DNA from: Lama guanicoe
Taxonomy: Eukaryota
Assembly (NCBI GenBank): GCA_013239625.1
Contig: MU054117.1
Span: forward strand, 806,001-870,000
Direction of reading: 5' to 3'
Length of the DNA: 64,000 nucleotides
Numbering within the stretch: position 1 is the first letter of the stretch; every line of letters starts with the position of its first letter. Positions 19,722 to 64,000 of this stretch are shown one piece after another. A program made the translations under genes and the position numbers. A model generated the notes under the pieces. It had not been told where the DNA came from. It saw only the letters and a program-made list of their open reading frames with translations, and searched no databases.

Positions 19722-19759
19722 AGGTCAACTAAAAGGAAGAGGATTTGGGGGAAGGCAGC

Positions 19760-38235: not shown

Positions 38236-38789
38236 GTTCCCACACAAGGGGCAGGAAACCGCAGTGTGAGGTGAGGCCACGTCCAGGTCCCCCCGCTGAG
38301 GTTACCTCCCAGGCCTCCGCGACGCCGCTGGGCCCACAGGGGAGCTAGCGCGCTCTGCCCCAGGCCACTCATCCACCAGACTAACCCCAAACGCTGTCCT
38401 TCCTCCCGAAACAGGAAGGACCGGGTGACCCCTCTGTCCTCTGAAGGCCACCGTTCGCTGTCACTCCCGGGCAAACTGGGAAGTGACCCCCCCGCCACAG
38501 CGCCGCAGCCCCATCTGCTCCGAGTCCTACTCGGCCTCCTTGGATTGGCACGTCCGGCTCGCGCTGCCAGGGACCATCTGCACCCCGCGCCTCCCGACAG
38601 CCCAGACTGGCCCTCTGCTGGTTCAGATGGGCAGGCGCCAGCGAGCACACCCAGCCTCGGGGGGTCCCACTGTCACACCCTGGGTGGCTCCCCACAAACC
38701 CCGCACCTGGGGGTGCTTGCTTTGTTTCTGGGCACAACTCTTGAGCACTGCGTTCCCTAAGCTTACTCGCGCTCTTGGTAGTCAGGAGA

Positions 38790-38915
38790 GCAGCAGGTAG
38801 CGGGCGTCTTTACCCATTTGCAGATGGCAAACAGAGAGGGGCTCTGACTTGCCCAAGGTCACACAGCAGGCCGGCTGTGCAGCCGGAGCGCAGCCAAGCT
38901 CTCTGCATCCAAGCG
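38790..38915 (-). mobile_element. MIR fragment
   Basis: CCCATTTGCAGATGGCAAACAGAG..TGACTTGCCCAAGGTCACACAGC. Confidence 0.9.
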
Positions 38916-39972: not shown

Positions 39973-39978
39973 TTTATT
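39973..39978 (-). terminator. Candidate polyadenylation signal (AATAAA) with downstream GU/U-rich element
   Basis: Minus strand reads AATAAAgcctttagtttgatttcagtctgtgcctcctatgttttatttttc; it lies in unique (non-repeat) sequence. Confidence 0.4.
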
Positions 39979-40609
39979 ACGAACCAGTTCTAAACAGGAG
40001 GACACGGCCTAGGTGTGTGGTTACAAAGGGCCCCTAACAGCCCAGGATTAACCTACTTGCTCAACCGAAAAGTGGGACCATTCTGGGCTCTCCCTACAGG
40101 CCGGAGGCAGCCGGGCACCTGGCGAACCTGCTTTGCGTCTAGATTCAAGAGAGTCCCCAGACGAGCTGAGCCAAACTCCCAAGTCAGAGAGCTCAGTTCT
40201 CCTGGGCCGGGGTCAAGGGCAGAGCATATCTTCCAGGGGTGCGGGGGACACTCCCTCCCCAACCCATGGTGACACCAGGCGTTAGAAGTGTCCCCTCTGG
40301 GTGGGTCACCAAAATGTACGTGGGGGCACGGGGGTAGGAGTAGTGGAACCCACAGACGCGACAGGGGCACCCTCTCCACGATGACACGGGAGGCCTTGGG
40401 AAGCAAAAAACAAACGGAGAAGAACAGGGGCTCAGAAAGAAGACTGCACGCAGCCGCCCGGGCCAGCGCCGGAGCCGGCCTGGAGCTGCTCGGGGAGACC
40501 CTGCGTAATCCACGGGACAAGGAGGGCAGGGCACCAACCCCACGGGAGCCCACGCCCGCCCGTGGCTCTGGGCCGTCTCCACCGTCTGCCCTCCCCCCTC
40601 CTCCCCCCT

Positions 40610-40857
40610 NNNNNNNNNNNNNNNNNNNNNNNNNNNNNNNNNNNNNNNNNNNNNNNNNNNNNNNNNNNNNNNNNNNNNNNNNNNNNNNNNNNNNNNNNNN
40701 NNNNNNNNNNNNNNNNNNNNNNNNNNNNNNNNNNNNNNNNNNNNNNNNNNNNNNNNNNNNNNNNNNNNNNNNNNNNNNNNNNNNNNNNNNNNNNNNNNNN
40801 NNNNNNNNNNNNNNNNNNNNNNNNNNNNNNNNNNNNNNNNNNNNNNNNNNNNNNNNN
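40610..40857. other. Assembly gap (N run)
   Basis: N bases; the left flank is C-rich low-complexity sequence. Confidence 1.
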
Positions 40858-43030: not shown

Positions 43031-43379
43031 TGCTGTGGCCTGAATGTGTGTACCCCCAAACCGCTGACATGACGGTCCCTGGAGATGCCGCCGTGGGAGG
43101 GGACTAGGTGTAGATGAATCAGGAGGGGCTGCTGGTGGGATCAGTGACCTTGAAAGCCGAGGAGGAGACACCGCAGCACCCGTCTCTCCGCACATGTGCA
43201 CCAGGAGAGGCCGTGTGTGCACAGCGATGGGGCGGGGGGTGGGCGTCCACATGCCAGGAACCAAGGCCACCGACTCCTTGTACTTGGACGTCCAGCCTCC
43301 AGACCATGGGAGACACAGGTCTGGGGGTTAAGCCCCAGCCAACAGTGTCTCGTTACCGCAGCCTGAGTGGGCCGAGGCG
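43031..43379 (+). mobile_element. MLT1A-like solo LTR
   Basis: TGCTGTGGCCTGAATGTGTGTACCCCCAAA...TGGGATCAGTGACCTT...CTTGGACGTCCAGCCTCCAGACCATGGGA...TTAAGCC...GTTACCGCAGCCTGAG. Confidence 0.88.
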
Positions 43380-43484
43380 CTGGGCCGGGCAGAGACCTGC
43401 CGCTCAGTTACTGAATACGACGTGCGAGCTAAGCCTGCCCACGGACCTGTGTTCTGCCCAGCTTCCCCTCAACAGAAGAACCAC

Positions 43485-43520
43485 AGACACACACACACAC
43501 ACACACTTACACACACACGC
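43485..43520. repeat. (CA)n microsatellite, interrupted
   Basis: Read directly. Confidence 0.95.
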
Positions 43521-46004
43521 AGAGAACTTTTAAGTTAAAAAAGCCTGAGCGGATAAATAACCCAGCTCAATTTTGGAAACAACTATTTTTTGAAAACAGA
43601 GAGAAAAGACGTGCGTTTCGCTGGCCTGCAAAGTCCCTCCACCATCTGCCCATTTTCCGCTGGGGTCACAGGTCCTCCTCCTTTCCGCGAGGTTTTTCGC
43701 TTTGTTCCTAAAATCCAAGTTTTCGTCCCCTCCCCCGGGGATGGGGAGGAGCAGCAGCAGCACAAGGGTACGTGAAGGTGACGGACAAGCACGGGGAGAA
43801 GCACAAAGAGGCTCGGCAGGAACTCGGAGCCGGAGGAGGGGCGAGACGGCGCGTGAAGGCCTAAAATGTCTCAGCAAAGACTTCTGTCCCTTTGCAAAGT
43901 CGTGCCACCACCTTCCGCAGGGAACCGAGGGACCCGGGAGTCCAGAGCCCATGCTGGCTGCGCCCCAGGACGGCCAGGAAGCCCGGAGCCCAGCCTCGGG
44001 GACAAAGCGCCCGCCAGCAGGATGAGGCCTGCGGTCACGGGCCTGTCTCTGGGGACCGTCCACCACAATGGGGGGCCGCGCACTCCCCCCACCCTCGAGT
44101 TTCCCAACAAAGGTGACGCCTGATCGTGGCACCTGCAGGTTTAGTTAATTGAACCCACCGGGGAACGGAGCCCAGCGACCACGGAGCCTCAGACTCACGG
44201 GAGAAGGGCCTGCGGTGCCGGCGGATGGGGCTGCAGGGGTGCTCGCGTCCTCCCGGGGACCCAGGAGGCGCTCCGGCTTCCAGGGAACACAAGCCAGGGC
44301 TCGGAACGCGGCCCACCCCCCAGCAGTTCTAAGACAAAAGTACCATTTGTTTCCGGAATAATCAGAGTGAAAACCCAAAAAGACCAACTCAGAACGAGAC
44401 CGAGAGTTTTAGGGGTCAGGCAGAAGGAAGGAACCTGATGAGGTCTTTTCTACTGGCAGCCCTAGATCTTCCTAATTTTGAGGGAACTTTGGTCCTACAT
44501 CCGGGAGTTACCCAGGGCGCGTCCCACAGGCGCCGTGAGCGGGTGCCGGGGGCGGACAGGGAGGGAAGCTGCCAGGAGGACGCCCCTGAGGAAATCAAAT
44601 CGCATTTCCCGGCAGCGGGGTCACAGGCTTCAGGACTCGCCCACCCCCAGGCTGCGTGCCGTGTGTGGTCACCGCTCCCACCACCGCCACGATTCCGGGG
44701 GAAGAGCGGAGCACCGCCTGACAGCCCCTGGGCCGGGGGTTTGCTGTGTCCGGGGCACGGTCATTCCTGGGACTCGTGGAAGAACAGAGTGAGGCCAGGG
44801 CAGCGGCACAGGCTGGGCTCCAGGACTGCCCCCAAGCCCCCCACATATGGGGGACCCCACCCCCTACACACGGACCCAAGGCAGCCAAGCCCACCTGCCA
44901 AGCCCTCGGGGCCTCGTCTATAAAAGGGGGAACCTTTCATCTGTCCACAGGGTCGTCAGGGCCGGGCAGCTAAAGCACTAAGCAGCGCCGACCTCAAGAG
45001 ACCCCTGGTGACTGTCAGCCCTTCTCACTCACGTGTTTCAGAACAGAGACCTGGCCCACGGGACAAGGGAAGCCTGGATTTAAGGTCCCGTTCACTCTGG
45101 GAGCCGCCATCCCCAAAGCCGCAGCAGAGCCCCATCCTCTCTGCCCAGAACTCTGCCGGGGCCTCAGTGCCCGCACGACGGGGTACTGACTCCTCTGTGG
45201 ATGGCCGGGGCCCCCCGACCCAGCATTGTCCCCACTGCCTCTCTCCCTCACCGGCCCTGGATGCCCCGTGCTGGTCCCAGCTCCCGAACCCTGACTTCCC
45301 TCCTGCTGGGCACCCACCCCCTTTTTCTCCTCTTGCCTAATCGGGGCCCCTGCTCGTCCCCATCCCGGTCCCCACCCGTCCTCCCTGTACACTGCGGCCG
45401 CCTTCACTGTCGCCCACACCCCGCCCTGGACATGGTCATCTTCGGGTCTTCCCTCGCTGGCCCGGCCTCTCGCCAGCACACGGCAGGGCCTCACCAAGGC
45501 TCCTTGGGCCACTCACTGCTGTGCAAACGTGGGGAGGTTCCCGCCAACGCAGCCACAGCCCCGCCAGCCTCACCCGCGGCCTCACAGAGGAACTCAGCCC
45601 TCATGGCCAAGTGCATTTCAGAATCCAGACGTCCCGGGTCCTAGAGGAGCAATCTGTGCGCTCACCATATGAACGCCGTGGCAGGGTGAGGTCCCCACAG
45701 GCCTTCACGCTCCTGCCAGGGACCCTGGAAGGGCCATTCTGAGCGGGTTGAACGTGACTGAGCCCACCCCCGCCAGCACCTGCCCAGGCGCCCCGACATG
45801 AGTTCCGTCAGGTTTTGTTGCCAAATGGATAAAAGCTGAACTTCCATTTTTCAGAGATGGTTAGATTCCAGAATCACAGAGCAGGGCTATGGGTCTGTAT
45901 CAGGTGCGATGGGACAAAAAAATAAACATAAAAATAAGCAGACGACAGCCCCCCGGCCTTGAGGAGGCCCAGCGGGCAGAGCGCGAGCTCAGGCGTGACG
46001 CAGA

Positions 46005-46070
46005 CCCGTCTCTGAGCCTCAGCTCCTCGCCTGTGAAACGGGCTGAAAGGAGGTGACTCACGCGGAGAGG
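46005..46070 (+). mobile_element. MIR core fragment
   Basis: TCTCTGAGCCTCAGCTCCTCGCCTGTGAAACGGG. Confidence 0.75.
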
Positions 46071-48172
46071 AGAGGCTTGCAGAGCACCCGGCAAATTTCC
46101 AGCCCAGGGGGAGCCTGTACGGGGGGGTCACAGCACCGTCCTGTCCGTGGAAACCCGCACGCCTGTGTCCGAGGGCACAGGTCCCGGGAGCCTCTCGGGG
46201 ACGGAGCTGAGATGACCTCCTGGAAGGAGCTTCTTGGTGGGAACGGACTCGGAGCAAACCTGACGCTCCGGACGTGTTGCGCACAAAACGGCGGAACAGA
46301 GCACCGGTGACCGAGCCAGCTCCCCGGCCGTCTGCAGAACTCCGGGCAGCAGCGGCCTGTGACCCCAGGCGCGGCGTGGCCTGCGCGCTCGGGCTGCTGT
46401 CTCTGCCGGTCGCTCCCTCTCAACACTTCCGTTTCCAAAGACGTCAAACACACAGACACAGCCAGGCACCCGTCTGCGCAGCGGAACTGCGTTCACGGCC
46501 CACGCGCAGGGTCGGGACCAGACCCAGGCCTCGGACGCCACGAAGCTGGGCTCCCAGTTTACTGTTTTTGTTGGTAAAAGTCATCTTCCCACTGTGAGGA
46601 CAGCTCCTTTTTGCGCCAAGTGAACCTAATCCTGATGTTTATTAACATTAAACTTGACATTTACGGCCTGAGCGCCTTACCGGCATTAACGGATAATCCT
46701 CCGAGCATCCCGGGGTGGTGGGGGCGCCACGTGAGGCCCAGGACGGCCCAGGCGAGGCGTCACGGGGCTGGGCCCCCACCGCCTCGGGCTCTGCAGCCTT
46801 GCTTCCGGCCGTGGCTCTCGCTCAGGAGGCATCACCTCTTCCTTCCGCTCAGTTTCTGAGCAGCTCCATCCCGAAGCCCCACCGGCGTCTGTGCGCTGGG
46901 CCCCGCCCGTCCAGGCACCTTCCGGTCAGAGAAGCAGGATCATCAGCCACCTGAGCCAATGGCCACGGTGCCACGGGGTCCGGAGGCTCTGGAGCAGGGG
47001 TCACACCCAGGGGCCAGCGGGCCGAGACCCACAGGTGGGTGGAACTTGACTGACATCGTTTTTAAGGTAAAAAATTTTGAGCACATTTAAGGAGCAATAA
47101 ATTTCACCTAAAGTCCAAATTTCGTGTCAAGAGGTCAGAAGGGCTTATAATGGCAGGTAGACAGCCCTCACGGCGACGGTCTGCTGTGGCTGCTTCCGCC
47201 GGGGACACGAGCTTGGCACAGACCCCGGCCCTGCTGCTTCTCGAGGCCCAGCGTCCGAGTCGGCAGCTGTCTGTCCTTCTTCCTGCACTGCTGCCTCGCA
47301 CGGGGTGGGAACGAGCACGCTTCCGTGGGACGTGAGCCACCCCCCGCCCGGACCTGGCCCACCTCCCCGTGCTCCCCTCCTGGCCACCTCCTGCAGGCCT
47401 CTGAGTTTGCAGCCTCCGACCTGAGCACAGAGAAGGTCCCAGGAGGTCGGGAGGCAGGACGTAGCAAGAGCCAAGTGGGGCTGGGGACGCAGGGAGGCGG
47501 CCAGAGCAGCAGCCCGGCTGGAGTCGGGGTGGGGGAAGGGGACCGGCGGCTGGAGGGCTGGGGAGAAGCTGGGATCCGGAATGAGGCTGCACAGGGAGCC
47601 GGGATCGCGAGTGGAGATGGTGACCAGTAGGGGCCGGGGCCCGAGGGTGGAGACACCACCTCAGGGTGGAGAGGAAGTGAAGATGCCGACGGCTGAGGGC
47701 CGGAGAAACACTCCGCAGGCTCGCGCCTCCGGTGACCCCGGACTGAGCGCCGCCGTGACCCAGGCACGGGGCAGGGCCAGACGGAAATCCCCGCCGCGCA
47801 GCACACAGGCCGGGTGGGGAGGGCTCCCGCCCGGACCGGAGATGCTTCTGCCCCGCTAGCCAAGGGCCTGGAGAGGTGCCTTGGCAAGGGCAGGCAGGCG
47901 GGGGCAGAGTCGGCGGTCCCCCCAAAGGGCTGCTGAGCAGGGAGCGGGGAAGCGGGCTGGTGATTCTCCTCCCGACACAGCTCAGCCCAAGAAAGCACAG
48001 AGCGGCTGCAAACCCCGCTCGTCAATCTCCCGAGACACCGGACCACCTTCAGAATCACAGTGCAGACGGCGGGCCCCGTCGCGCCTTTGACCTGTTTTCC
48101 CAGGCTTCTCACGTCGTGTGACTGATCACACATATTCCCCCAACGGGCTCCTCTGCCTGCCTGCTCGCGAGC

Positions 48173-48305
48173 TGTGTTTGTGTGCGTGCACGTGTGCGTG
48201 TGTGCGTGCATGCATGCCCACGCACACGTGCACACACACACATGGACAGGTCCATGCACACAGAGACGTGCACACACGTGCACAGACAGGTCCACACACG
48301 CATGC
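48173..48305. repeat. Degenerate (TG)n/(CA)n alternating purine-pyrimidine tract containing an inverted repeat
   Basis: Read directly; a 15-bp perfect inverted repeat at 48186-48200 / 48219-48233. Confidence 0.9.
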
Positions 48306-48769
48306 TCACAGGCACCCCCCCAAGCTTTCTCAGAAGGTCACGCTGGCAAGAAGACGTCTCAGGCGAGGGGGATCTGCACATGGAGAAAGGGGGAAGAAAC
48401 ACACCAGCGCAGCTCAGGGCCCCTCATGACAACCCTCTGAGCTCCGCCCGAAGAGGAGACAGAAAAGGTGATGACGGGGCAAACGCGGACTCGTGCCGGG
48501 GGATCGTCTCCGTGTGGAGCAGAGGCACCTCCCTGAGAGGGGCTCAGGGACGCGCAGTGGGGAGGGCCACCTCCACGGACGGGACCTCCGTGGGTTCCTT
48601 CTTGGCCAAACTCTCTACACCTGCTCTGCTCACTGGCCTTGGGCGCTTGCCCCAGAGCTAGAAGGGCAGGTGGGAACAGGGCAGGTGGAGACAGGGGCAC
48701 GGACGGCGCAGGTGGCACGAGTGAGGAGGCCGTGGCGGCATTACCATGACGCGCGTCATGAGTACTCAC

Positions 48770-48933
48770 CGTGTCCCTGGCGCTGGGCTGGCCACCAGGG
48801 CCACGACGGTGATACCTGGGGTGGAGGGGGCCAAGGGCAGAGCAGCCGAGGCGGCCCCCTGACGGAGGGGTCCGAGGAGGACACAGCAGCCCAGAGGAGG
48901 AGGGGGCAGGATGTGGGCAAGGAGGAGATGGTC
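48770..48933 (-). other. Candidate spliced exon (164 nt), product unknown
   Basis: Acceptor cctttcctccagctcccttcccccgtctgcAG and donor ACG|GTGAGT; no homology recognised. Confidence 0.35.
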
Positions 48934-48985
48934 CTGCAGACGGGGGAAGGGAGCTGGAGGAAAGGCTGAGCAGGCACCCCGGGCA

Positions 48986-49050
48986 AGTGCGTGCGTGTGC
49001 GTGTGCGTGTGCGAGTGCACGCGTGTGGACGAGTGCTTGTGTGTGTGTCT
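48986..49050. repeat. Degenerate (TG/CG)n microsatellite
   Basis: GTGCGTGCGTGTGCGTGTGCGTGTGCGAGTGCACGCGTGTG...GTGTGTGTGT. Confidence 0.85.
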
Positions 49051-50344
49051 CGGGGGGTGATATGCAGGGAGAGACAGACACACCACGTGGATGATGGACG
49101 ATCTGGACTTGATCACCTGACTTGAACCCCAGCCCCCCTTGGGGACCCTGGGAAGTGACTGCTTTCTGCTTCCACGTCCCCGTCCTGAGGCAGGAGGTAT
49201 GTGTCGGCCGGCCAAGCGGGGGCCTGTCAAGGTCGTTCCACAGCACGGACTTCGGAGAGGAAAATTTCCGCCCCGCCCACCTCGGAGTGCAGGGACCAGC
49301 GCTCCTGGAGGCCCCAGACCCAGCGGAGCCAGGAGCGAGCGCCCCACGCTGTTAGCGTTGTGGGCAACGATGCCCTAATGATTCAATTAGCGGCAGCAAC
49401 ACTTCCCGGCGGATCCACGGCTCAGCGCTCGCTGCCGACGGACTCAGTTCCTCCAGCAACAGAGCAGCTTGCAGGGAACAGGCTCCTTTCTTCACAGTCA
49501 CTTTTCAAAACACTTCCATTCTCACTTGCCTCATTTTCCACTTCCTTCCCATCCCCCGAGGTCACGAGGACCCCTCGCCAGCCCCCTCACACGCCCATGG
49601 TGCGGCTGGGTCCTCCCTGCCCCCTGTCTGGGCATCCTCGGGCCTTACCGCCCCCCACAGGTGCTCGGGGCTGCGGCCAGAGGAGCAGATGGGCACGGCC
49701 GCTGAGCCTCGGCGAACGGAGCCGGCACACGGCCGCCGTGGAGCCGGCCCAGGCGAGACCGCTGCGGGAGGCTCTCTGAAAATCTGCCCTGGCAACACCA
49801 CTAAGGTCGGAGTCAGGCAGCGTGTGCAGGGGTGCAGTCGGGGCCTGGCGGCCGAGAAGAGGGCCGGTCAGAGATGGGGAGGAGGCTGAAACCTCCTGCC
49901 AGGCAGGATCAGGGGGCTTCCCAGGGAGGGGGCTGCAGCCCACGGAGCTGGGAGTGTCCCTGGGCGGACACAGCTCCTGCAACCGCAGGACAGGGCCCTC
50001 CGCGGGCCCCGTGGTACCTCTTCTGATGCTGACTCCCAGCCCACATCCCCCCCGTGCCCAGCTGGGCCCCCCAAGAGCCCTCTCATGATGAAATGAGCTG
50101 TGGGGGATGCGTGTGCGATGTCGCCCTGGAGACGCATCCCCACACGGCAGCCCTGGTGGTGGGGCCAAGAGGGGCGCTCAGGCGGAGCCCCTCCACACGG
50201 CTCTACCAGACTCCACCGGCCCCTCTGGCCCCACAGTGCTTTCCCACCGGACGCTGGGGCAGAACTAGAGGCGGCAGCAGTGACGTGTAGGACGTGAGGA
50301 AGGGCACTGTGACAGGGGCGACACCAGCTAAATGGCCCCCATGT

Positions 50345-50490
50345 GTCACGTCACACAGGCCCCTCACCAGCCGTCCAGAACGAGCACCCCCACCTCACAG
50401 GTGAAGAGACTGAGGGTCAGAGTGGTTATGCCATTGAGCAAAGAGACCGAGCAAGCAGCAGGGCTAAGCCCGTGAGGACGAGACTCCGCC
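50345..50490 (-). mobile_element. MIR fragment
   Basis: CCCCCACCTCACAGGTGAAGAGACTGAGGGTCAGAG. Confidence 0.75.
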
Positions 50491-52311
50491 TCCAAGACCT
50501 CGGTCAGGGCCTCACAACCTCTCTGCGTCTCCAGCTCCCGCATCCCGGCCACTGCAGCGAGGTTTTCTCCTGCCTTCACCGCCCCTTCACCACCGCCTAC
50601 AAGTCCAGCCTTCTATCCTCTTCTCAGAGAAGAGGAAGGTGGGCACAGTGACCTTTCACCCAAAGGACAGAGAAACCCGGACCCCTCCCCTCCCCGAGAC
50701 AGGCCGGCCCCTCCTCTTCCCGATCACCTCCTGAGCACTGACCCCCTCTTGGGCCCCTCCCAAGCCTGCTCTGCGTTGCCTTGCCCTCCAAGTTCCCATC
50801 AGAGCTCCCTGCTGGTTCTGACTCACGAGGGAGCCAGACGGACCGGTTCCCTCCCTGTTTCCCCGTAACATTCAGTGTGACCCGGGTGGCATTCCCACCG
50901 TTCCTCCCCACTCCCCACACCTTTCACCCTTCACCACTGAAGCCAGAGAGCGGATCGTGAGAAACGTCGGGGTCTGCAGCCCCCAAGCTGCACTCGAGGC
51001 AGGAGCGGGAGAGGCAGTCTGTGGCCGGGCTCCAGTGCTTCCTCGATTCAGTACCAGTCTGTCTGTGGTCCAGCGCCAGTGTTTCTGTGTTAGGAGCACG
51101 TCCAGACCAGCTGGCTACCTAGCTGCTCCTTCCCGGGAGATGCTCCCTGGCTCGCACGCGCTCAGGCTCACTACCCATGCTGGTGGCGCTGGGGGGACCA
51201 TGCCACATGCAGGAGCCTCGCTCCCAAACCTGCCTCTGTCGCCCTTGAGGGTGAAGACTGAACACGGAGTCCCTGGAAGGAAGCAGCAAATCGTTGGGCT
51301 TCCACGTCGAGCTGCACAAACGGGCACGTGGACAGGAGCGGCCGTCAGCACTGCATTTATTAACGGCCTGTCTTCAGCGTTAAAACCCACCGCCGCCCCT
51401 CCCCTGCAGGTCACGTGATCTGGGGCACGGGGTCCACGCAGAGGCTGGGAGGGCGGAGGGACGCTGCGTGGCTCTTGATCTGGACCGACAGCAAACCTGC
51501 CCACTCGTGCTGCACGAGGGGTGCTGTTTCCTGCAGCTCGGCCCAGCGTGAGAACCGTGCTGTTTGCTGACACGGGTTTCCTGCAGCTCAGACAGAAAAC
51601 GAGGAGTGAGGTGAGGCTGAAACCCTCGTCTGGACCCGGTGCTTCCTCCGGTCACGTCTTGGCAGAGCACCATCCCTGAAAATGAGACTCTGCGGGAGGC
51701 AGGAAGGCCCGTCTTCCCTTCCCAGTTGGAAGTGTCTCAAAAGAGGTGGGCCAGCCCGCTGAAGCGGGGAGGAGCCTTTCAAGGGGTCACGCGGCCAGCT
51801 AGCGCCCGAGCCCACGTCTCCTTCCACCAAACAGCAGTCCCAGAGCCACACGGGTCCCCACGGCCCAGTCTGGCTGCTCTCAGCTCAGCTCATCATCCCG
51901 TCACCTCCTGGGTCTCAACGCGGAGCTGCAGGGTGCTTCTCCGGTGACGTCATCCGGATGAGGAGGACCAAGTGGACCCACACCATCGTCCCTGAGCGAC
52001 CTGGGGAGGGGTGGGGGCGCCGCGAGGAGGCGGGGCTGGTCCAAGCGGCAGGAAGCAGCTTCTGCTTTAATTCATGGTAAAAGCCCCAGATCCAGAACGT
52101 TCCACACACTGGGATCAGGGCCCCCAAGGCCACCATGGGGGGGTCCGGTCTGCCAGCCCCCTCCCTACTGGATCTGCCACACGCCCCAGACCAGCAGAAC
52201 GCAGACAAACCAGAAAATGGACACGTTAACACGGCACGACTCGGAGGTGGTTTCCACCAAAACTCAAAGCAGAAGCACAGGAGGAGCGCCACACACTGCA
52301 GCGTTCTCCTG

Positions 52312-52353
52312 GCGCTGGACGCTGCGCTGGACGCTGCGCTGGATGCTGTGGAC
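52312..52353. repeat. 12-bp tandem repeat GCGCTGGACGCT x ~3.5
   Basis: Read directly. Confidence 0.85.
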
Positions 52354-52549
52354 ACCCTGGGGCCAGCGTCGAGGTCCCAGGGAGGGAGCAGCTTCCGAGG
52401 GCCTGGCATCTTCAGAGCGAGGGGAAGGCCGCTCCCGCGGGGGTGAGGATGGCACAGCCCCGGGGGGGCAGGGCGCCACGGCCCCCCATCTCTGGGAGAG
52501 CAACTTGGGTCACTTCAACGACCGGCTCCGCTCAGGCCGGGCACCCTCG

Positions 52550-52579
52550 CCAATCAGAGGGCACGGTTACCATGGCGAC
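52550..52579. promoter_or_regulatory. CCAAT box plus RFX X-box module
   Basis: CCAATCAG at 52550 and GTTACCATGGCGAC at 52566-52579, close to the palindromic RFX consensus GTTRCCATGGYAAC. Confidence 0.6.
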
Positions 52580-52744
52580 GGCCTTTGTGACAGAATCTGA
52601 CTTGCTGTCTGATCCCTGTGCACTGACTGCCAGGGTGTGGTTGGGAGACGTGTAGACAAAGGAGACTCAAAAAAATTAGGATGGAAACTAGCCCAGAAGC
52701 GCTAAGTTCAGCCCAAGAACCGGAGAAAGACGCTTGGCTGAGAC

Positions 52745-52880
52745 GCCGGCCGCACGTCATCTGGGAGCGTGTCGGAGACGCGACTCAGGCCCCATCCTAG
52801 ACCAGCTGGGCCAGAATCTACGTTTACCGAGGTCCCCGGCGACCCGTACGCAAATTCAAGCTTGACAGGCACGTCCTTAG
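52745..52880. mobile_element. MER5-like element
   Basis: TCATCTGGGAGCGTGTCGGAGACGCGACTCAGGCCCCATCCTAGACC..CAGAATCTACGTTTACCGAGGTCCCC. Confidence 0.7.
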
Positions 52881-52974
52881 GGACGCTGAATCCCGCTCTG
52901 CAAACCCATGGGGCCGGGACGGGGGACCCAGTGAAGCCGGCGGCCACTCGTGCCCTCGCTGTGGAAGCAGACGT

Positions 52975-53130
52975 CGTGAGCAGCTGTGCCCACCGCGCAG
53001 TGCCCCGGCGTCCTCATCTGTAAGACAGGGTGACAGCAGTGCCTGCCTCAGGGGTCCTGAGGGCCCCGAAGAGCAAATACACGTGAAGTTCTCAGGACAG
53101 CGCCCGGCGCGCAGAGACTACTGTGCACGG
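52975..53130 (+). mobile_element. MIR fragment, GC-shifted
   Basis: TCCTCATCTGTAAGACAGGGTGACAGCAGTGCCTGCCTCAGGGG...ATACACGTGAAGTTCTCAGGACAGCGCCCGGC. Confidence 0.85.
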
Positions 53131-55559
53131 TCTAGGCGGCTGGGCGTCAGGATGGGCGTGAGCCAGAATGGTGGAGCGGAGCCGGAGGCGGCGTCTGCAC
53201 CGGCTGTGCACCCAGCGGCCTCTGCTCAGCCTGAGAGACACGCCTTTGTCAATCACCCCTCCTCTGTCCCCTCCCCACCCCACCTGACACAGTGCCCAAG
53301 GAGCCCCGCAGACAGAATCGGGAGTCCGACGCTTCACCTGGTCCCGGTCTGAGCATAGCCCCCCACCAGGCAGGCGCATCCTACAGGCAGTGCGGGGGGA
53401 CGGCCCGCCAGCAACTGCACCATCTCCTGACCCCCTACCAGAGAAAAAGCCTTCGAAATAAGCCAGCAATTTAAAACCCCTAACCCATGACGCCCTGGGC
53501 AGAACAATTAGCCCGAGGTGCTCCAGCCCTCGGCAGCCCCTGCAGCGCGCGGCGTCAGGTTGGTGCCCTGCCCAGCGGCCGAGCCGGTGAGGACGGAGCA
53601 GACCGGCCTGGAGCCGGGCCAAGCCACTTCCCCGACTGCGCAGCTCCAGGGTCAGCGCCCCCTTGCCCAGCGCAGAGTGAATCAGGGGTTTCTGGGGAGT
53701 CGGAATTCCGAGCAGTAGGGAAAGGAGGAAAAGAAGAAGCAAGGACAACAGCCTGGGGCCTCGAACGGCGTCTCCTCTGTGTCCCCGCCTCGGGAACGGC
53801 TGGAGAGGGGCAAGCACTGCCTGGGGAACCAGCGTAGGGACCACCAGGACCCTGCCCGGGAGACAGGAGGGCGGCCCCAATCCCACCCAGGCCGCGGCCC
53901 ACGGCGCGGGGCACCGAGAGGCCACCTTCCAGGGACGTCAGGCGCCGCGGGTGTCAGACTGTCAGCGAGCCCCACCCACAGCCTTCTGGCCCTTCCGTCA
54001 CTCAGCCTCCCTCCTGCGAGGGGGCCCCCGCCCCCCTCACCAAGCCACGCTCTCCATCACTTTTCACTGGACTGCTTGGGCCAGCAGGTCAGCGCGGTTA
54101 CAATTCTCAAGGGCAGAGCTCTGCACACGCGCAGGGCGGGGCCCACGAGGCTCCTCTCTAAACTGGATTCCCCGTGTTAACACACACGGAGCACTGCTGT
54201 GAAAAGCACCAAGGAAACCCCAATTCAGGCCCTGGGATCCAGCAGCCCGGGTCGTCTCCCAGGCCCAAGGCCGGACGACCGCTTGGTGAGTGGCCCCGGG
54301 GCTGAGGACCGTCCACCCAGCTCTGGTACGCGTGGCAACACTCTCAGGTGCCTGGGCCCCTCAGGACTGTTCGAGGCAGACGCAGGTGACGCCCCCGCCC
54401 TCACTTCTCACCCAAGTGCACGCCACCAAGCTGCCCACTGCCCCACGGGCTCCCTCCTCCCAGGAACGGGCAGGGCAGCAAGTCGGCCACAGGAGCGCAC
54501 GTCGCACTTGGCCAGTGACACGGAAGACGGATAATCGGGAGGTGCCAGAGGGCACCAGCAGGAAGGGCGACCCGCCTGCAGGACTTCCCAGCGTTCCCGC
54601 CTTCCCCACAGACGCTCCCTGACGACTGACTTGTCGGAAGGGTAGGCCGTCCAACGGGCAGAGTCCCCGTCACGGGGACACGCTCCTGGGCAGTGACCAG
54701 GACACTCAGTCCATCGAAGCTCGGGAAGTTCCAGGAAATGCTAGCAACCGGCCTGAGCGGGAAGCACGGGAAAAAGGCGGATAGTGTTGTCAGACAGGAG
54801 ACAGAAGAGCGGGGATGGGGAGGGCACGTGCCAGGGAGCTGGACTCCCACCACTGCCAACCTGCTGCCACCGGGACCCAGGGCCGCCTCGGCGTGCAGTG
54901 GGGTTGAAGTCCAGCAGCAGAGCCTAGAAAACGCGCGTCTGCCGAGGGATCCCTTTGGGGCCTGAGCGCAGTGTGGAGAGGGGCGCTCCCCCCCCCACGC
55001 CCACCCCACGCCCACCCCGCGGTGAGGGGGCGCCCTGGACGTGGAGCCCTGAGCCTGCAGCAAACTCCTCCCTCCTCCCTTCACGTGCTTGAGGGAGCAG
55101 TTAGACTCCAAAGGTCTTTTCAGGCCAGAGAAAACGCCTCCAGCTCCCCAGCACGAGGCCTGCGGGAGTCCCCCACCTGCCCGTCAGAGCCAAGCTGGGG
55201 GCAAAGGTCTCAATGGCGCCAAGAGGCCCTGGGCCGGGAACAGCCTCTTCACAGGCTACCAGCCCCTGCATCTACAATCAAAATCAAAACTCCCCAGGCT
55301 GACTGTGCAAGGCTGCAGAATGCTGAGAACTCTGAGATGAGTTCTCCTCATCGGCAATGACCAAGAAGAGTCCCGTCTCCGAGGTCTGACGGAGGAGCAG
55401 AGCTCCCCCCAGGGCAAACCCGGGCCCATCGCCAGGCCGGGCGCAGGTGACTGAGAGAGTAACATGGACTCACGGCCACAGTTCAACAGAATTTTAAACT
55501 GCCGCCAGACGGGTCCCGTGGACACGGCGACAGGTTCTTCAGGCTTAAAGTGGCAGGGT

Positions 55560-56728
55560 CACCACGTGTTACAGACAAGAGACGGAGCCGGTTGACCCAC
55601 ACACAGCACAGACGGACACACTGCCTCCTTCGGGAAGGAAAGACCGACCTCAGAGAGCCAGGGGACAGCAGTACGTGCACCTGCGCCCGGACGCTGGGTG
55701 TTAAACACCTCTCTCCTAGAAAAGGAACCAGGCCCCGTGCAGAGGCGTTTCATTTCAGGGCTCGAGCAGGGGAAATTCAAGATGATCTCGGAGCATCTTG
55801 TGGCCCGAAAGCAAGAAAACGCTTGAGGGAGGAGGAGGCACGTGGGAGGGCACAGGAGCTGACCTGAGAGACCCCCCCCCGACGGCCACAAATGAACGGC
55901 GACGACAGACAGGCACAGAGGTCCTGGGTCACAGCCCATAGGACAAGCTGAGCAGGCGAGGGACACAGACTCGTTGCTGAATAAAGATGCACTGGGGGCG
56001 GAGAGACAGCTCTTCCAGACAGAAGAACTCCGGTAACAGACGTGGAGGGAAGGGGCCCAGAGGAAACGCCACGAGGCTCACGCCAGGGCTGCTGCTGCAG
56101 GGGTCTCCCCCAGTGGGTGCTCAGCTGGGAGCAAAAGCTTATGAAACAGGATGTCTGCATCATCTCAAAATACCTCCCCCAGATGACTTATTAATTAGCA
56201 CTGGGGAGATGGCAGCCTTACAGTCAAGAAACTCAACAGACACCACCTTCACTGAGGGATGAAAACTAACAGCGCCAGGAAGCAGGCGCAGTGATGTTTG
56301 TCCCGACAGGATAGGTCACGAGGGGTGCGTGGCGTCTGCGACACTCAGAAGCGATGTGTGTATTCAATAAGCAAAGGTGCAGGACTCCGCCTAATCGCGA
56401 CGGCCTTCAGACAGACCCACGGCAAGTGGCATCATCAAAGTAACGGCCGTGCTCTGCGAGTGCCCAAGGCAGGCCACGCCAGGAAAGCCTGGGGCAGGCA
56501 GACGGAATGACTAAACGCCACGTGGGGCCCCCGATCAGATCCTGGGCCAGAAAACGCACGTAGGTGGGGAAGCTGGTGAACTCCAGATGAAGTCTCTGCG
56601 GAACCGAAGGCACTGCACCGACGGGAACTTCTCACTTTTAATCATCGTGTTATGATCGTAGGAGATGCTAATTAGAGGGAGCTGAGGGTTCCTCAGCACC
56701 ATTTTCAGCTTTCATGGGAGCCTAAAAT
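55560..56728 (+). mobile_element. L1MC4/5-like 3' UTR
   Basis: AAAAGGAACCAGGCCCC...TTTCAGGGCTCGAGCAGGGGAAATTCAAGATGA..GAGCATCTTGTGG...CATCTCAAAATACCTCCCC...GGAGATGCTAATTAGAGGGAGCTG. Confidence 0.75.
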
Positions 56729-56886
56729 NNNNNNNNNNNNNNNNNNNNNNNNNNNNNNNNNNNNNNNNNNNNNNNNNNNNNNNNNNNNNNNNNNNNNNNN
56801 NNNNNNNNNNNNNNNNNNNNNNNNNNNNNNNNNNNNNNNNNNNNNNNNNNNNNNNNNNNNNNNNNNNNNNNNNNNNNNNNNNNNNN
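56729..56886. other. Assembly gap (N run)
   Basis: N bases. Confidence 1.
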
Positions 56887-57528
56887 GTGTTCGTGGTTGC
56901 CCTACGTTCCATCCTGAGCTTCGACCTCGCCGTGGACTGGTAACTGCGCTCCTGGCTAGGGACCACGTTTTGAGCAGCACGGTGCTAGGTTTTCACAATT
57001 TACCAAAAAGAACAGAATCAAAACCCCTGCTGCTCCCACCTGGTGAGCATCCTGGGTGCTGGGACCCAGTTTCACACCTGGCTGGTGGGTGCGCTGACCG
57101 TGCTCACAAAACGGGGAACCAGGAGCTGATGGTTCCACTCGCTGCTCTGACTTTAAACACAAAATCAAAAACAAACCCTCAGAAGTGTGTTTATGAGCCC
57201 AGGCAGGTCACTTGCCTCTGACCGCCGTTTCCTCGTAATTAAACTGGGAAAGCAGCGTGCCCCCGGGGGCCTCTCCCTTCGGAAGGGGCTGGGAAGGCAC
57301 CTCGGGGTCGGACAGATCCGGCCGCTGCAGCCTCCTGAGCTCAGACGCAAAACGCAGCCCCGAGGGTCCCCGACACCGGTTCACTCATAACCCCAACACC
57401 CAGGAACCCTCCCTCCGCGGCTCCCGGACCCAGACAGCAACCTGCCTCCTGGGGCGCTGGACACACGACCCGGAGCCAGGAGCCCGGAAGCACCCGCATC
57501 CGGAATCATCGGACCGACAGGCCGACAC

Positions 57529-57620
57529 TGAAGAAGAACACGCGCACACGTGCGACTGGGTCACCCTGCTGCACACCCGGAACTAACACAACGCGGCTTC
57601 AATTAAAAAGGAAAAAAAAA
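57529..57620 (+). mobile_element. Short L1 3' terminus with A-tail, strongly GC-shifted
   Basis: GACTGGGTCACCCTGCTGCACACCCGGAACTAACACAAC..CTTCAATTAAAAA versus recalled AACTGAATCACTTTGCTGTACACCAGAAACTAACACAAC. Confidence 0.85.
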
Positions 57621-57789
57621 TCACCAGATCAAGGCAGCTGTTTGATACTTGAGTGGATGGGACTTAAACTCACATTTTTAAAAATTCCTGCTGTAATCCG
57701 TCCAATTAAAGAAGCCATAGACGGCACACATACTCATGATCGTACGTGCTCATGAGAGAAAAAAACGCTGCCAACTGTTTTGCAACACA

Positions 57790-57870
57790 CCCTCTATCGT
57801 AAAACGCATTCCAATTTTAGAGAAATTAAAATTTAGGGGGAAATGTGTGTCTCAGAATCAAGTGAGTCAA
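57790..57870. mobile_element. TcMar-Tc2 (MER104/Kanga-like) fragment
   Basis: ATCGTAAAACGCATTCCAATTTTAGAGAAATTAAAAT...AAATGTGTGTCTCAGAATC. Confidence 0.55.
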
Positions 57871-58202
57871 TGAAATGCAGCAGGTCAACCCCAACCGTCT
57901 GGCGCTTCCTCGCAGGGGCCGGTGGTCCCCGGCGGTAAAAGGACCTCTGGTCTCTCCTGCCTGGTCAGCACTCTGGCCAGGGTCCTCAGACGGAGAGGCC
58001 TGGGGTCTTCAGGAGGGAGGGAGACGGAGCTGCGGGTGGTGACCCCAGGCACCGGCGCGTCCGGGTGCGTCCCGGGACCGCGTGCGAGCCTCTCGCCAGG
58101 ACAGCATCAGGACTGCCGTCCTGCAGACTCGGGAAGGGTCGAGAACCTGCCAAAGGTTCGTCCAGGGTGGAGCTGGGCTGCAAACCGACCACAGAGCCCA
58201 CA

Positions 58203-58311
58203 GCGTGAGTCACGCCATCGGGAAACCCCTTTAGCAACGCAGACTCCACGCTGAGCACCGAAGTCTCGAAATGCTACCATCCTCGGCAACCCTGACCTGG
58301 ACGCAAGGTCA
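58203..58311. promoter_or_regulatory. Candidate enhancer: AP-1, NF-kB and everted nuclear-receptor repeat
   Basis: TGAGTCA at 58206-58212; GGGAAACCCC at 58220-58229; TGACCT-N7-AGGTCA at 58293-58311. Confidence 0.5.
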
Positions 58312-58408
58312 GTGTCACAAGGATCACGTCTCCAGGAAGCTGGTCTTGGTGGGAGGAGGGGGTGGAAGGACAGGAAGTCCCCGCAAAGTAAGGAAAGGCT
58401 CTCAGAGC

Positions 58409-58427
58409 GGGGGGGGGGGGGGGGGGG
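58409..58427. repeat. Poly-G run (19 G)
   Basis: Read directly. Confidence 0.95.
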
Positions 58428-59628
58428 CGATCGGAGGGAACGCTCGCTCATGGCCTCCTGCACACCCAGCCGCGGCGGCAGCAGGTGGGGCCGTGCCTGC
58501 GTCGGGCCCAGGACGGGTGTATTTTCAAGCCTTTGGCAAGTCCAGGGTCTCCCGCGTGGCCGGGACCAGGAGGCTGCACTTCCTCAAAAACACCCGGGTC
58601 TGTTTTTTCAAATAAGCGAACAGCAGGTGCACACGCGGGTGCCAGCCGTCCAGGCAGACGGTCCTGAGCGGGCTGGGCAGCCCGGCTTGCGGGCCTCTGC
58701 TTTGGCGAGGCCCTCGGACCAGCAGAGAAGAGGGCGGGCGGGGGACATCCCTGACCTCACACCCGGACCAGCCGCAGAAGCAGGACGGTGGGTGGAAGGG
58801 GGCGTTTCCGCGGCTCCAGCCCCGGGGGTCTGCTCGGCCACCAAGGCCCCGGGCTGCCCTCGCCTGCGGGAGCATCCAGTGCGCTTAGGGTGATTGTGGA
58901 AAGGAGACGCCGCCGGGCAGGTTTATAAAGCGGATCATCAGACACGAGCTCGCCGGAGGCACTGAGCGCAGCACGGTGTAGACGCAGGCCTTCCCTCGCG
59001 GCACAAGCCCACAGCACACGACACACTCCGGGCCCAGGAGCTCGTGTCCTCGGAAGGCACGTCCCAGTCCTCGGCCCTGCGACACAGGCCACCCCACCCC
59101 GACGCGGAGGCCGCCAGACTCGGGCCGGTCCACCCGCGGCCAGCGCTGCCACGATTAAAGTCAGCTGGAATGACCAGATTCCTGCCCAGCCCTCGCGTTC
59201 CTGTTTTTCCAACAAAACAGATCTTCCTAAACGTATTTCACGTATCGCTGCAGCCCGGACATCAAACGTCTCCCAGGGTGAAATTAAATACAGCATTTTA
59301 TCTGGAACAGGCCGCCTAACTCGATTTCCCCCAGCACTGACCCGCGGAGACCCGCCCCTTGGTGGCTAACGACGCTGGGCTCCGAGCCGAACTTACAGCC
59401 TCCCTCCAGGCTCCTGAGAACCCCCCGCCTCTCTGCCCCGGTTCAGGCACTTTGCGGGTGGAGAGGCCAGCTCGCCCCTTTGCCTCCTCGGCCTGCAGAG
59501 CCTCTCCAAGGCCCTGGCGAACAGTCCTGCACCGCCGGAAACACAACTTCCTGCAAAAGACGAGTGAGCTGCCACGGCGCGGGCGCCCTAGCCAGGGGAA
59601 GGGGTGGCTCCCATCCGGATGCTGCCAT

Positions 59629-59808
59629 GTGTCCCTGCATGTCCCTGCGTGTGTCTGCGTGTCTCTGCATGTCTCTGCATGCTCCTGTGTGTCCCTGCAA
59701 GTCCCTGCTTGTCCCTGCGTGTCCTTACGAGTCCCTGTGTGTCCCTGCATGCTCCTGTGTGTCCCTGCGAGTCCCTGCATGCTCCTGCGTGCTCCTGTGT
59801 GTCACTGC
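59629..59808. repeat. 10-bp minisatellite RTGTCCCTGY x 18
   Basis: Exact 10-bp period over 180 bp with variant units. Confidence 0.95.
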
Positions 59809-60374
59809 TCTTCACCTGACAAGGCAGTGGGAGAGCCAGCAGGCCAGGAACCCTGCTCTCGGTAACCATCACTGGACACCCAAGCTCGCTCCAAACCCGG
59901 AAGCCTTGTGCTCACAGCAGACGCAGCAATGAGACCCAGAAAGGACGGGGGCCCCACGGTCCCGGCCTGGGTGCAGCCTGGGGACCTCCCACACGCAGGC
60001 CCGGCTGTCCGGCAGCCCTCTCCCCGGCTCAAATGTGAGGACGGTGTGCCTCCAGCCGGCAGGCCCAGCAGCCGGGACCCGGGCTCGCAGCAGCAGCAGC
60101 CCCTTCCTGAGGGCCCGCGTGGGGCAGGGCATCTCCCTTCACGTCCGAGACAACCCGGAGCGAGGAAGCTGTCCCAGGTCACGCAGGCCCTGAGGGTCAC
60201 AGCGGCACCTGGAGCCTGGTCTTTCTGACTCCAAACCTGACCACACCGTGCGGCCCCGCTGACAAGCTAACACCCCCCTCCCCACAAAGGCGTCGCTGAG
60301 AAACGGCGCTAAACCACCGCCGCATCCAGAAGGAAAGCCGGGCGCAAAGTCGTAGGTGAAGTGAGACCGTGTCT

Positions 60375-60500
60375 GAGTGTGAGGAGTACACGGCACACGT
60401 GCAAAGAACACGTCTAAATCCACGGTGGAGATTTTAAGTTTTCTTCTTTATAAATTCGCTTTTCCAAAATATTAAAATAGATGATCCTTACTAATCTGAA
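60375..60500 (+). mobile_element. Old L1ME-like 3' terminal fragment
   Basis: GATTTTAAGTTTTCTTCTTTATA...TTTTCCAAA...TTACTAATC. Confidence 0.45.
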
Positions 60501-60507
60501 TTAGACG

Positions 60508-60903
60508 TTTTCGTTGTGGCAGCACACACACACATTCGCCGTCCCGGCCACCTCTAGGTGCGCAGGTCAGAGACGCCGAGCACTCGCACTGCCGGCAGCC
60601 AGCCCCGCCACCGCCTCTCCAGGGCTCACCCCCCGCCCCCACGGGCAGCACCTCCTCGCTCCCCCTCCCCCAGCCCCTGGCGCCCTCCGCTCTGCTCTCT
60701 GCGTCCACGGGCTGGACGTTCTCGCGTTTGTCTCTGTCTCTGGCTTATTTCACTGAGAGCATCGTGACCTCAAGGTCCATCCACGTGGCAGCAGGTGACA
60801 GAACCCCCTCCTCTTGCACGCACGGGCCACGCTGTGTCAGCCCGCCGTCCAGGACGCTTGGTTTGCTTCCATTTTTGCTGCTGTGAACACGGGTGCACAA
60901 AAG
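60508..60903 (-). mobile_element. L1MB-like 3' end, extremely GC-shifted with internal deletions
   Basis: CCCCTCCCCCAGCCCTGGC, CTGGCTTATTTCACTGAG, CCTCAAGGTCCATCCACGTGGCAGCAGGTGACAGAA and GCTGCTGTGAACACGGGTGCACAAA are L1MB landmarks in order. Confidence 0.88.
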
Positions 60904-62119
60904 CTTTTTTTTAAACACCTAAACTTCACTCCTGTCATTTACGTCAGCAGCCGGTGCTACTGCGGATTAACGTCAGGACCCGTCTTCCACTGGCCCCGGC
61001 CTGGAGCATGGCGAACTCTGCCCGGGGTCTGCAAGTTTGCCTCTGTCTTCAAACCAGCGGTTCAGCCTGGCCGGACCCTGGAATCGCCCAGGGGCATTTC
61101 ATAAAGGACACCGGCGTCCAGCCCCAGCCTCCGCGCCGAGGCAGAGGAAGCGGTACGCCGCGAAACGCGTCTGCAGGGGCACAGTCGTTCCCCTAGACTC
61201 TCCTCACGGGGGCCTTCCCTTTATTTACAAGGTGTCTGTCCGTGGGTAACTTCTCTCTTTTCTCCCATCAAGAACAAAAAGGCTTTGACAACCGGTCAGT
61301 TAGCCCAGTAGCTGGGCTGATTACATCTCAACCGAGAAACACCCGCTCCAGGCCGCACCTCCTGGGTCTCAGCCTCTCTTCTCACTGTGCACCGAGAGCC
61401 TGCTCCGTTCCTGGAAGGAGCCGACCTGAGGGAGCAGGTGGGGAGGCACTTCCAGGCCCACGCAGTCTCGAGGGCGTCATCACTGAGTCCTCCTGGACGG
61501 CGGGGCCAGGAAGGGCTCCAGGACTCCCTGGAGGAGACAGAGGGCGGGTCCGCCCTGCGCTCCTCCACCCTGACGCCCTGGCTCTTGCCCGCGACTCCCA
61601 GGACAGACAGGTGTAGTGTCCCCACCAGCAGTGAACAGAGTCAGTCACACGGCCTCCTTGCGGGGAAGGTGTCACCACAGTACTTTCGTGCCACATGAAT
61701 GTGCCACCTTTTACAAACACACAGATGAAAAGGCAAAGCGACTGCTCAGGAGCTGACCCCTGGGCGAGCCGGCGGGAGGAAGGGGGCCGTGTCCACCTGG
61801 CCCGACCGCTGGGGTGTCACTGGGGCCTGGCTCCTGAGAACAGTCCAGGGCGGCGTGGGGGCCACGAGGGCTCCGACCACTGTGCACCCTCGCGAGGCGC
61901 CCCTCCCTGGAGGCGACATGTGACAGTGACTGTGATGCAGGGTCTCAGAGCCCCTCCTCCCAGGGGAGGCGGAGGCACCCTCGAGGGCCCCGGCCTGCCT
62001 GCCCCTTCCTGCGGCCAGAGCGGGGCCCCACAGCTCCGAGCCCCGGGTTCCTGCTCTGCAGTCAATCTCACAAGGTGAGTGTGAGGGTAAAGAATGGCCA
62101 GACAGAGCAGCAGCTGCCG

Positions 62120-62240
62120 GGCACCCAGCGGTCACTTCACGCTCCTGATGCGCCGCAGCCCTGCGATCATGGCCCTTCCCTTACAGGCGAGGAGCCTGAG
62201 GGCCGGGGAGTCCAGGGAGGCAGGCCTGTGAGTGGAGCCT
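62120..62240 (-). mobile_element. MIR fragment, GC-shifted
   Basis: CCCTTACAGGCGAGGAGCCTGAGGGCCGGGGAG resembles TTTTACAGATGAGGAAACTGAGGCTCAGAGAG. Confidence 0.6.
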
Positions 62241-62653
62241 GGCGCCCTGCACCACCGCCCAGCCGACCGGGCACGTCCCCTGGCGTGGGCCCACTCCCCA
62301 GCAGGACTCGGGATTCGGAGCCCCGCTGACCACCCGCAGGGAAGGTGCCCTGATCCCACGCGTCCCGAGGGCCGGGAACGGGGGGACCTGGTTCTCGTCC
62401 ACCAGGTGGAGCAGACCCTGAAGACTAAGGGCCTGGCGGGAGGAGGGGCCGTCTGTCTGCAAACCGAGAAGTCAGGAATGTGGAGCGAAACTACACCCCC
62501 CCATCCCTGTCCCTGCGGTCAGGGCCCGGGGGCCTGGGAGAGGGAGTCCAGCGTACGGCCCCCACCGACGGACAGACAGACCCACAGCTCCAGGGAGAGC
62601 CCCTGTCTGGGTCGCCGGGTGGAACAGACTCCCCGAGAGCCTCACTCATTAAC

Positions 62654-62692
62654 ATTGGCGTTGCCATGACAACGAGCCGTTGCCAGGGAGCC
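62654..62692. promoter_or_regulatory. RFX X-box pair with adjacent ATTGG
   Basis: GTTGCCATGACAAC at 62660-62673 (one mismatch to the palindromic consensus); weaker GTTGCCAGGGAGCC at 62679-62692. Confidence 0.6.
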
Positions 62693-64000
62693 GCCAACTA
62701 GGAGAGTGAGAATCAGCGAGGCCTAAAAATAAAGCCGCTATGTCTCCAAGTCCGCGTGTAACAGGCCGCGAGCTCGCCGCCTCCCCCCCAGCGGCCCCCA
62801 CCGCTGCTCCGGCCCCGAGCCGCTCAGACGGGCGGCAGAGGGCCGCGGGGAGGGGCCAGGCGGGACGCTGCTGTCCAGAGGCCAGGAGCAAGCCGCACCG
62901 GTGGGCCGCCTCGCAGAGCCTGAGGGCACCTCCTTCCCTCTGGGAGGTGCCTGGTCCAGCGCCAACCTCCACTGCACGTGGAAGCAGGGGCCACCCTAAG
63001 CCGTCGGAATTTGCCAGAATTTGCCCAGCCCCTTGGCTCTGGGAGAACCGTCTCCCTCGGACCACTTTCCTCTTGGAAAACATCACCGAGGCCCAAGCCC
63101 CAGAGGCATCTGTGGGAGCAGGAGCCCCGATCGAGCAGCGTGTGTGGCTCATGGCTCCTTTCACGACTGATACTGGCAGGGCCGTCGTGGGCCTGGCTCC
63201 AAGAAGGAAGGTACCCTAACACTGAAAATCGTGGGGAAATCGTAAACATCCCCAAGGGGCAGGCGAGGGTCTTCCCGGCTGGTTCTGGCACCGCAGGGGA
63301 ACGCCTGGGTCCGCCCGTCTCCCCCGCCAGCCTCGACTCCCCACGAAGGCAGCGATCCCGCTAACTCACCCCATAACCTCAGCGTCCACACCACCCCAGA
63401 CACACCGTCTGCACACGGCAGAGGGCATGTCCTGGGCGAACGGAGAGACGTCAGCAGTAGCAGCCTCTGACCAGGACAAAACCTCGCTCTCTCCAGATTC
63501 TAAGCTCTGCACCCGGAGAGCCAAGCCCTATCCCTGCCCAGGCCTCTGTGCTCAAGAAGTGGTTTATCAGTTGTACCGGGGCATCATGCCTTGAGCAGAT
63601 CAGATCAATTAAAACCCAGAACTTCGTGGGCAATAATTTCCCTGACGAGCAATCGTAACAGGGTTTTGTCGAATGTAGACCTGCCCGATTTCTTCCGAGT
63701 CTGACTTGTTTAATTCAGATAGTGCGTGGTCCTCGGAATCTGTGCTTTGCATGAAGCTGCAGCAGCCTGGCTCCTGGCTTCCCTCCTCACGGCCACGCTC
63801 ACCCTGGAGATCTCCCCCGACCATGGCTAACGTGTGCTCAGCACACGCAAACAGCGGCGAATCTTCCTGTCAGCGAAAGAAGTCCGTCCTCGAGAAACGA
63901 GAGCGCGTATCTTGCTCACCATCACCCCGTACAAAGAAGTAACCCATCTCTTGGTTCTTCGGCTGTCCTGGATTATCCAGCCACTAATCCAAATGCCGGC

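Follow-up and report, generated by a model that had tools for sequence, protein, structure and literature searches.

How 25 bases of a decayed repeat come to differ from a related stretch at 12 positions, every one of them in the direction of G or C, and whether such a concentration marks a past recombination hotspot, are the questions raised by this locus. The window, meaning the whole stretch of DNA analysed here, comprises 64,000 nucleotides of Lama guanicoe (contig MU054117.1, positions 806,001 to 870,000). The gapless alignment on which the original prediction was built, between positions 6008-6032 and 60536-60560, was reproduced with 12 differences, comprising 5 A>G and 7 T>C changes. 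The majority of 47 other copies of the family is identical, letter for letter, to 6008-6032, and the 60.5 kb copy therefore carries the derived letters, so that the proposed direction toward G/C was also confirmed. The 25-mer at 60536..60560 has been changed by transitions at 12 of its 19 ancestral A/T sites, and the one at 6008..6032 is unchanged; neither was assigned a strand.

Both stretches belong to minus-strand relics of the 3' end of an L1-type LINE. Copy B (60508..60901) is a decayed 3' end rewritten toward G/C, as judged by alignment to the majority of copies from its own genome, while copy A (5971..6107) represents a shorter stretch of that 3' end and is moderately shifted. A blastn comparison of the window with itself does not link copies A and B, and the link needs the other copies in the genome. 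The suspected L1 origin is supported by a dispersed multicopy family with a common 3' end and an A-rich tail. Each of the two copies, used as a query, returned at least 40 genome matches, and an end-to-end alignment of 47 copies opens with a run of T in the orientation of copy B, corresponding to the A-rich tail. On the same contig, a reverse-transcriptase (RVT_1) match at 984.1-984.7 kb is followed about 2 kb further downstream, on the same strand, by an L1 3'-end copy at 986.3-986.8 kb, a single case that involves a copy more diverged than copy B. Copies A and B presumably belong to L1MB or an L1MB-like subfamily.

With W denoting A or T and S denoting G or C, two other L1 3'-region copies on the plus strand, at 19188..19707 (W>S 0.29, S>W 0.21, neutral 0.045) and 26507..27014 (W>S 0.21, S>W 0.21, neutral 0.049), likely represent an older or different L1 subfamily. 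The window also contains two plus-strand copies of a younger tRNA-like SINE. One, at 23509..23731 together with A-rich flanks, is presumably vic-1-like (W>S 10/29, S>W 0/31; 49 matches among the sampled loci), and the second lies at 36119..36350 (W>S 4/30, S>W 0/38; 70 matches among the sampled loci). SINEBase names vic-1 as the simple SINE of camels (PMC3531059).

When all 25-mers of the window were compared on either strand, only 6008-6032 and 60536-60560 matched up to A>G and T>C changes, the chance expectation for such matches in the window being 2e-4. Positions 60536-60560 are covered by contigs from all four runs, which represent four closely related organisms about 0.2-0.7% diverged, and no other letter is listed there. 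The 25-mer is thus real and older than the split of those relatives, and an assembly error at these positions is excluded by the agreement of 4/4 runs with the assembly. Elsewhere in copy B, the assembly carries G at 60623 and C at 60627 where all four runs carry A; these G/C alleles are linked and found in the assembly only, and represent either a real haplotype or an error.

As a block in its own right, the 25-mer did not survive permutation. A 25-column window with at least 12 W>S changes arose in 51% of 2000 shuffles of copy B's own changes (P=0.51), which excludes the 25-mer as something special within the copy. It is where the changes lie most densely in a copy that is shifted uniformly, and no sign of function was seen in it.

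Over the reliable columns, copy B has undergone W>S change at 85 of 196 A/T sites (about 43%; 74 transitions and 11 transversions) and S>W change at 5 of 132 G/C sites, with only 7 GC-neutral changes in 328 sites (5 W<->W and 2 S<->S). The 11 W>S transversions stand against 1 S>W transversion, and the prediction's restriction to transitions proved to be a feature of the chosen 25-mer. Its expectation of strand symmetry held, A>G (31/82) and T>C (48/124) being equally frequent in copy B (Fisher P=1.0). Away from CpG-prone sites, W>S reaches 54/108 and S>W 5/121, and CpG retention as the sole cause is excluded because the shift persists there. Cut into eight consecutive blocks of some 50 columns, the copy shows W>S shares of 30-63% in all but the last, where the share is 17%. 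Over majority columns 1-145, the W>S share is 19/91 in copy A versus 42/81 in copy B (Fisher P=3e-5), and the S>W share is 4/43 versus 1/41. The share of copy A was taken as 19/91, its profile-scan row overrunning into flanking DNA. Copies were counted with symmetric scoring and a purine/pyrimidine filter, which removes only part of such overrun, and the values of other truncated copies may be likewise inflated.

Transitions make up 79/90 of the W>S changes in copy B, compared with 0.74 in other copies (P=0.0009); at non-CpG sites, this excess has P=0.11. Relative to young copies in AT-rich DNA, and corrected for multiple hits, W>S in copy B is 7.2-fold and S>W 0.23-fold. Crude estimates of the strength of the bias disagree, at about 7 from the W>S fold and 3.4 from the ratio.

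The shift is also part of a wider gradient. Scoring covered 115 copies, of which 64 came from loci selected for their similarity to A or B and 51 were sampled by position; among the latter, the GC content of the flanks correlates with W>S (rho 0.69) and inversely with S>W (rho -0.61). An age-matched set of 42 copies with neutral divergence of at most 0.03 was compared between flank GC below 0.40 (7 copies) and above 0.60 (5 copies, B included). Between these bins, W>S rose from 0.053 to 0.237 for transitions and from 0.018 to 0.061 for transversions, S>W fell from 0.158 to 0.053 and from 0.035 to 0.007, respectively, and the neutral classes went from 0.026 to 0.017 (W<->W) and from 0.018 to 0.017 (S<->S). 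With copy B removed from the top bin, W>S is still 4.0-fold up and S>W 0.36-fold. The majority used as reference mixes subfamilies, and 18 low-GC copies helped to define it; a version built solely from those of the 47 whose flanks are AT-rich (18 copies) differs from it at 19/637 columns. The trend recurs in the younger SINE family, where 105 of 106 copies were retained: at non-CpG-prone columns, W>S goes from 0.07 to 0.22 and S>W from 0.11 to 0.045. This indicates that the bias also acted after the SINE insertions.

The loss of internal blocks that had been suspected for copy B was established as 7 deletions totalling 96 bases, a shrinkage of 20%, located after about 60531, 60625, 60630, 60724, 60813, 60844, and 60875. 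Three of the seven are private; for each of the other four, 1-4 of 81-108 copies have a comparable gap that overlaps it. This shrinkage is the second largest among 54 young copies, and 27 of the 96 deleted bases were G/C, versus 36% for the element. Across the 54 copies, deletions per copy rise with the W>S share (rho 0.52), a count to which the caveat applies that alignment gaps increase with divergence. The relation of net shrinkage to flank GC is weak (rho 0.27 in the 54 young copies) and is not significant in 112. Four GC-shifted copies, L029, L025, L011, and L088, are also the most deleted, with 16-21% shrinkage; three of the four were picked by likeness to copy B.

The genomic setting was determined from protein-coding matches on either side. 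CACNA1C-matching exons were located at contig 921.3, 758.2, and 738.6 kb, all on the minus strand, and the window (806-870 kb) therefore falls, over its full length (1..64000, minus strand), inside a single CACNA1C intron of about 163 kb, which we take to be intron 3 by human exon numbering. The human counterpart is roughly twice as long, and deletion-driven shrinkage would fit the smaller size. Pfam gave no match in 107 of the 113 window ORFs of at least 150 amino acids, and Rfam gave none in the 64-kb window. The plus strand carries a steady excess of A over T from contig 750 to 1000 kb (skew 0.07-0.10), as would fit transcription of the minus-strand gene. With a PDB chain as reference, the minus-strand CACNA1C exons in L075 (2051-2398, near contig 758 kb) and L077 (2367-3209, near 738 kb) show I>V and F>L in one case and N>S and Q>E in the other; at the protein level, to which this comparison is confined, all of these but Q>E are typical of A/T-to-G/C substitution.

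The 5.31 Mb contig starts with a telomere-type hexamer array, from which the window is 0.81-0.87 Mb away, and this position provides indirect support for high recombination. At the contig start (L081:1-490), many array units read CCCGAA rather than CCCTAA, a T>G variant, and grade into degenerate units. Copy B is directly adjoined by an AT-rich tract of 24% GC (60433..60507, no strand assigned), for which no other genome match was found and none at E<0.1 among the sampled loci. The stretch at 61056-61200 resembles a strongly GC-shifted DNA-transposon relic, presumably MER5A-like, for which searches found no usable relatives, and no polarisable neighbour was found within 30 kb of copy B. Additionally, a short tandem repeat of roughly 10-base units at 59619-59809 varies in length between runs, and an imperfect inverted repeat (palindrome) of about 85 bases occupies 48179-48262, with a similar stretch in L078.

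The observations on copy B and its relatives thus combine raised W>S, lowered S>W, and flat neutral classes with strand symmetry and a regional gradient that carries copy-to-copy variation. With transitions and transversions sharing in the change, and both strands alike, this is the pattern expected of a fixation bias, and it matches the footprint of GC-biased gene conversion (gBGC), CpG hypermutability not being its source. In mammals, gBGC is the established cause of such a fixation bias (PMC3157837). We consider it likely, with a probability of about 0.85, that copy B is a strong gBGC footprint extending over the whole L1 relic, in a recombination-rich, GC-rich subtelomeric domain; the step from fixation bias to recombination is one that we infer. 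For the original prediction of a past hotspot, this means that a recombination-linked cause finds support, a discrete hotspot at the 25 bases being the less likely part, with the shift spanning the 394-base copy and topping a regional continuum.

A narrower version of the same process would place a discrete recombination hotspot of less than a kilobase on copy B, acting locally and episodically. Within a near-continuous 740 kb around the window, where 41 of 56 profile hits passed the filters, copy B ranks first of 41 for W>S (0.43) and has the lowest S>W share, and copy A shows half its shift over the shared columns. Among six copies matched for age and flanked by high-GC sequence, W>S shares extend from 0.16 to 0.43 (heterogeneity P=5e-11), and there is accordingly fine-scale copy-to-copy variation on top of the regional bias, which leaves room for a local warm or hot spot, although differences in copy age could add to this spread. 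CpG observed/expected is 0.80 in 60001-61000 versus about 0.6 for the window, yet no peak of GC or CpG surrounds copy B at 200-base resolution. The next six copies in the 740 kb reach 0.42, 0.41, 0.40, 0.37, 0.36, and 0.36, two others there also contain a 25-column window with 13 W>S changes, and the 25-mer is unremarkable within its own copy. A discrete hotspot is possible but less likely than not. A regional mutation bias, with more A>G and T>C mutation and less CpG decay through germline hypomethylation, would dispense with biased fixation altogether. It would accommodate the high transition share of copy B and the CpG observed/expected of about 0.6 across the domain, versus 0.07-0.42 in 20 stretches of three large contigs, but it does not account for the rise of W>S transversions, the fall of S>W at non-CpG sites, or the flat neutral classes. 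Polymorphism speaks on both sides. Between 44.1 and 53.3 kb, the assembly stands alone against the four runs at 25 sites, its lone allele being A/T at 18 and G/C at 3, with the other 4 sites S<->S; the 18:3 lean toward A/T (binomial P=0.0015; from the 40 of 225 rows that were listed, five haplotypes) argues against GC-biased mutation. The lone alleles beside copy B (58.5-62.5 kb, complete table of 27 rows, five haplotypes), with 8 S>W and 6 W>S, do not; the difference between the two tallies is not significant (P=0.11). Mutation bias in place of fixation bias is improbable.

Two remaining groups of explanations fare worse. Copy B might descend from a GC-rich source subfamily, might be a selected regulatory element, or might be misaligned, and it is true that the first profile search missed its first 140 bases. 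No sister copies were found, however, the best other matches being partial, at most 88 bases at 77-86% (best 40 of 148 candidates); its large deletions are mostly private; the scoring was symmetric and filtered for purine/pyrimidine changes; and the trend holds in two unrelated families, the L1 end and the SINE. These possibilities are very unlikely. ADAR editing and transcription-coupled damage are one-stranded processes. A-to-I editing of the RNA before insertion, or damage in the transcribed host intron, with its strand skew of A versus T, could produce A>G, one of the two main changes. The equal frequency of A>G and T>C on one strand contradicts such one-sidedness and excludes one-stranded editing, and neither process would lower S>W or follow flank GC, so that this account deserves almost no credence.

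Under gBGC, meiotic heteroduplex repair would favour G/C alleles at copy B, so that, compared with copies of matched age in AT-rich DNA, W>S fixation would be about 7-fold higher and S>W about 4-fold lower. The process would have been long-acting, in a recombination-rich domain near a chromosome end, and the extra deletions of copy B would stem from the same high recombination. Some observations do not fit a simple gBGC picture. The 24%-GC tract adjoins copy B, a feature that a simple conversion tract several hundred bases long would leave unexplained; GC is highest not at the contig end but 0.55-1.15 Mb inward from it; and the transition excess and the 8:6 lone alleles point the same way.

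Copy B offers a clean example, suited to teaching, of a known neutral process acting on non-coding DNA. It cautions against reading amino-acid changes in the G/C direction in the neighbouring CACNA1C exons as necessarily adaptive, and shows that profile searches miss repeats with a strong shift. Its weight would grow only if the strength of the bias were lineage-specific and sharply local. A bolder reading, which we regard as a long shot, is that this lineage, likely camelid, has experienced unusually strong and long-lived gBGC, with copy B as a stable, promoter-free, sub-kilobase hotspot in mid-intron, where almost half of the A/T sites were rewritten and AT-leaning blocks were deleted. If this were true, old L1 ends would form a genome-wide fossil map of hotspots in a group that has no recombination map.

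Several known systems allow the locus to be placed. The study that derives equilibrium GC (GC*) from repeats is said to be the work of Popa et al. 2012, and a separate study reportedly deals with hotspots of biased substitutions. The literature search, which did not extend to most subscription journals, found among the papers listed none on gBGC at camelid CACNA1C and no camelid recombination map, and South American camelids were described as without one as of 2020 (PMC7331169). GC* estimated from transposable-element copies against their consensus is correlated with recombination (PMC3318449). Like ours, that approach derives strand-symmetric substitution rates from copies of repeats, and it covers mammals, pig and sheep among them; it differs in using large windows and genetic maps for seven species, none of them a camelid, whereas single copies were used here, without a map. 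GC-biased fixation near human recombination hotspots was described by Katzman et al. in 2011 (PMC3157837), and resembles the present case in that substitutions are W>S-biased while rare variants are not so biased. In contrast, that work places its changes on short branches and draws on allele frequencies and maps, and the changes in copy B are undated and summed over the age of the insertion.

Runaway GC evolution in gerbils was reported by Pracana et al. in 2020 (PMC7403616). It likewise involves domains of hundreds of kilobases with a strong AT-to-GC skew; in the main gerbil region all classes are raised, whereas here S>W is lowered and the neutral classes are flat. Joseph et al. (2024) describe stable, PRDM9-independent hotspots as common in placental mammals (PMC11161765), in a main text where the words "camel" and "alpaca" do not occur. 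Such stable hotspots would give long-lasting local gBGC, as copy B may show; they are located at hypomethylated, promoter-like sites, whereas copy B lies in mid-intron with no clear CpG island. Nam and Ellegren (2012) found that the deletion bias in transposable elements rises with recombination (PMC3342960). Copy B is similar in having lost 20% of its length, as is its family in that deletions per copy rise with W>S; deletions were set here against the W>S share and flank GC, and not against recombination rate. Finally, the subtelomeric GC enrichment of eutherians has been attributed to gBGC (PMC8336415). Among these systems, copy B represents a new locus for a known process, a clear but ordinary example.
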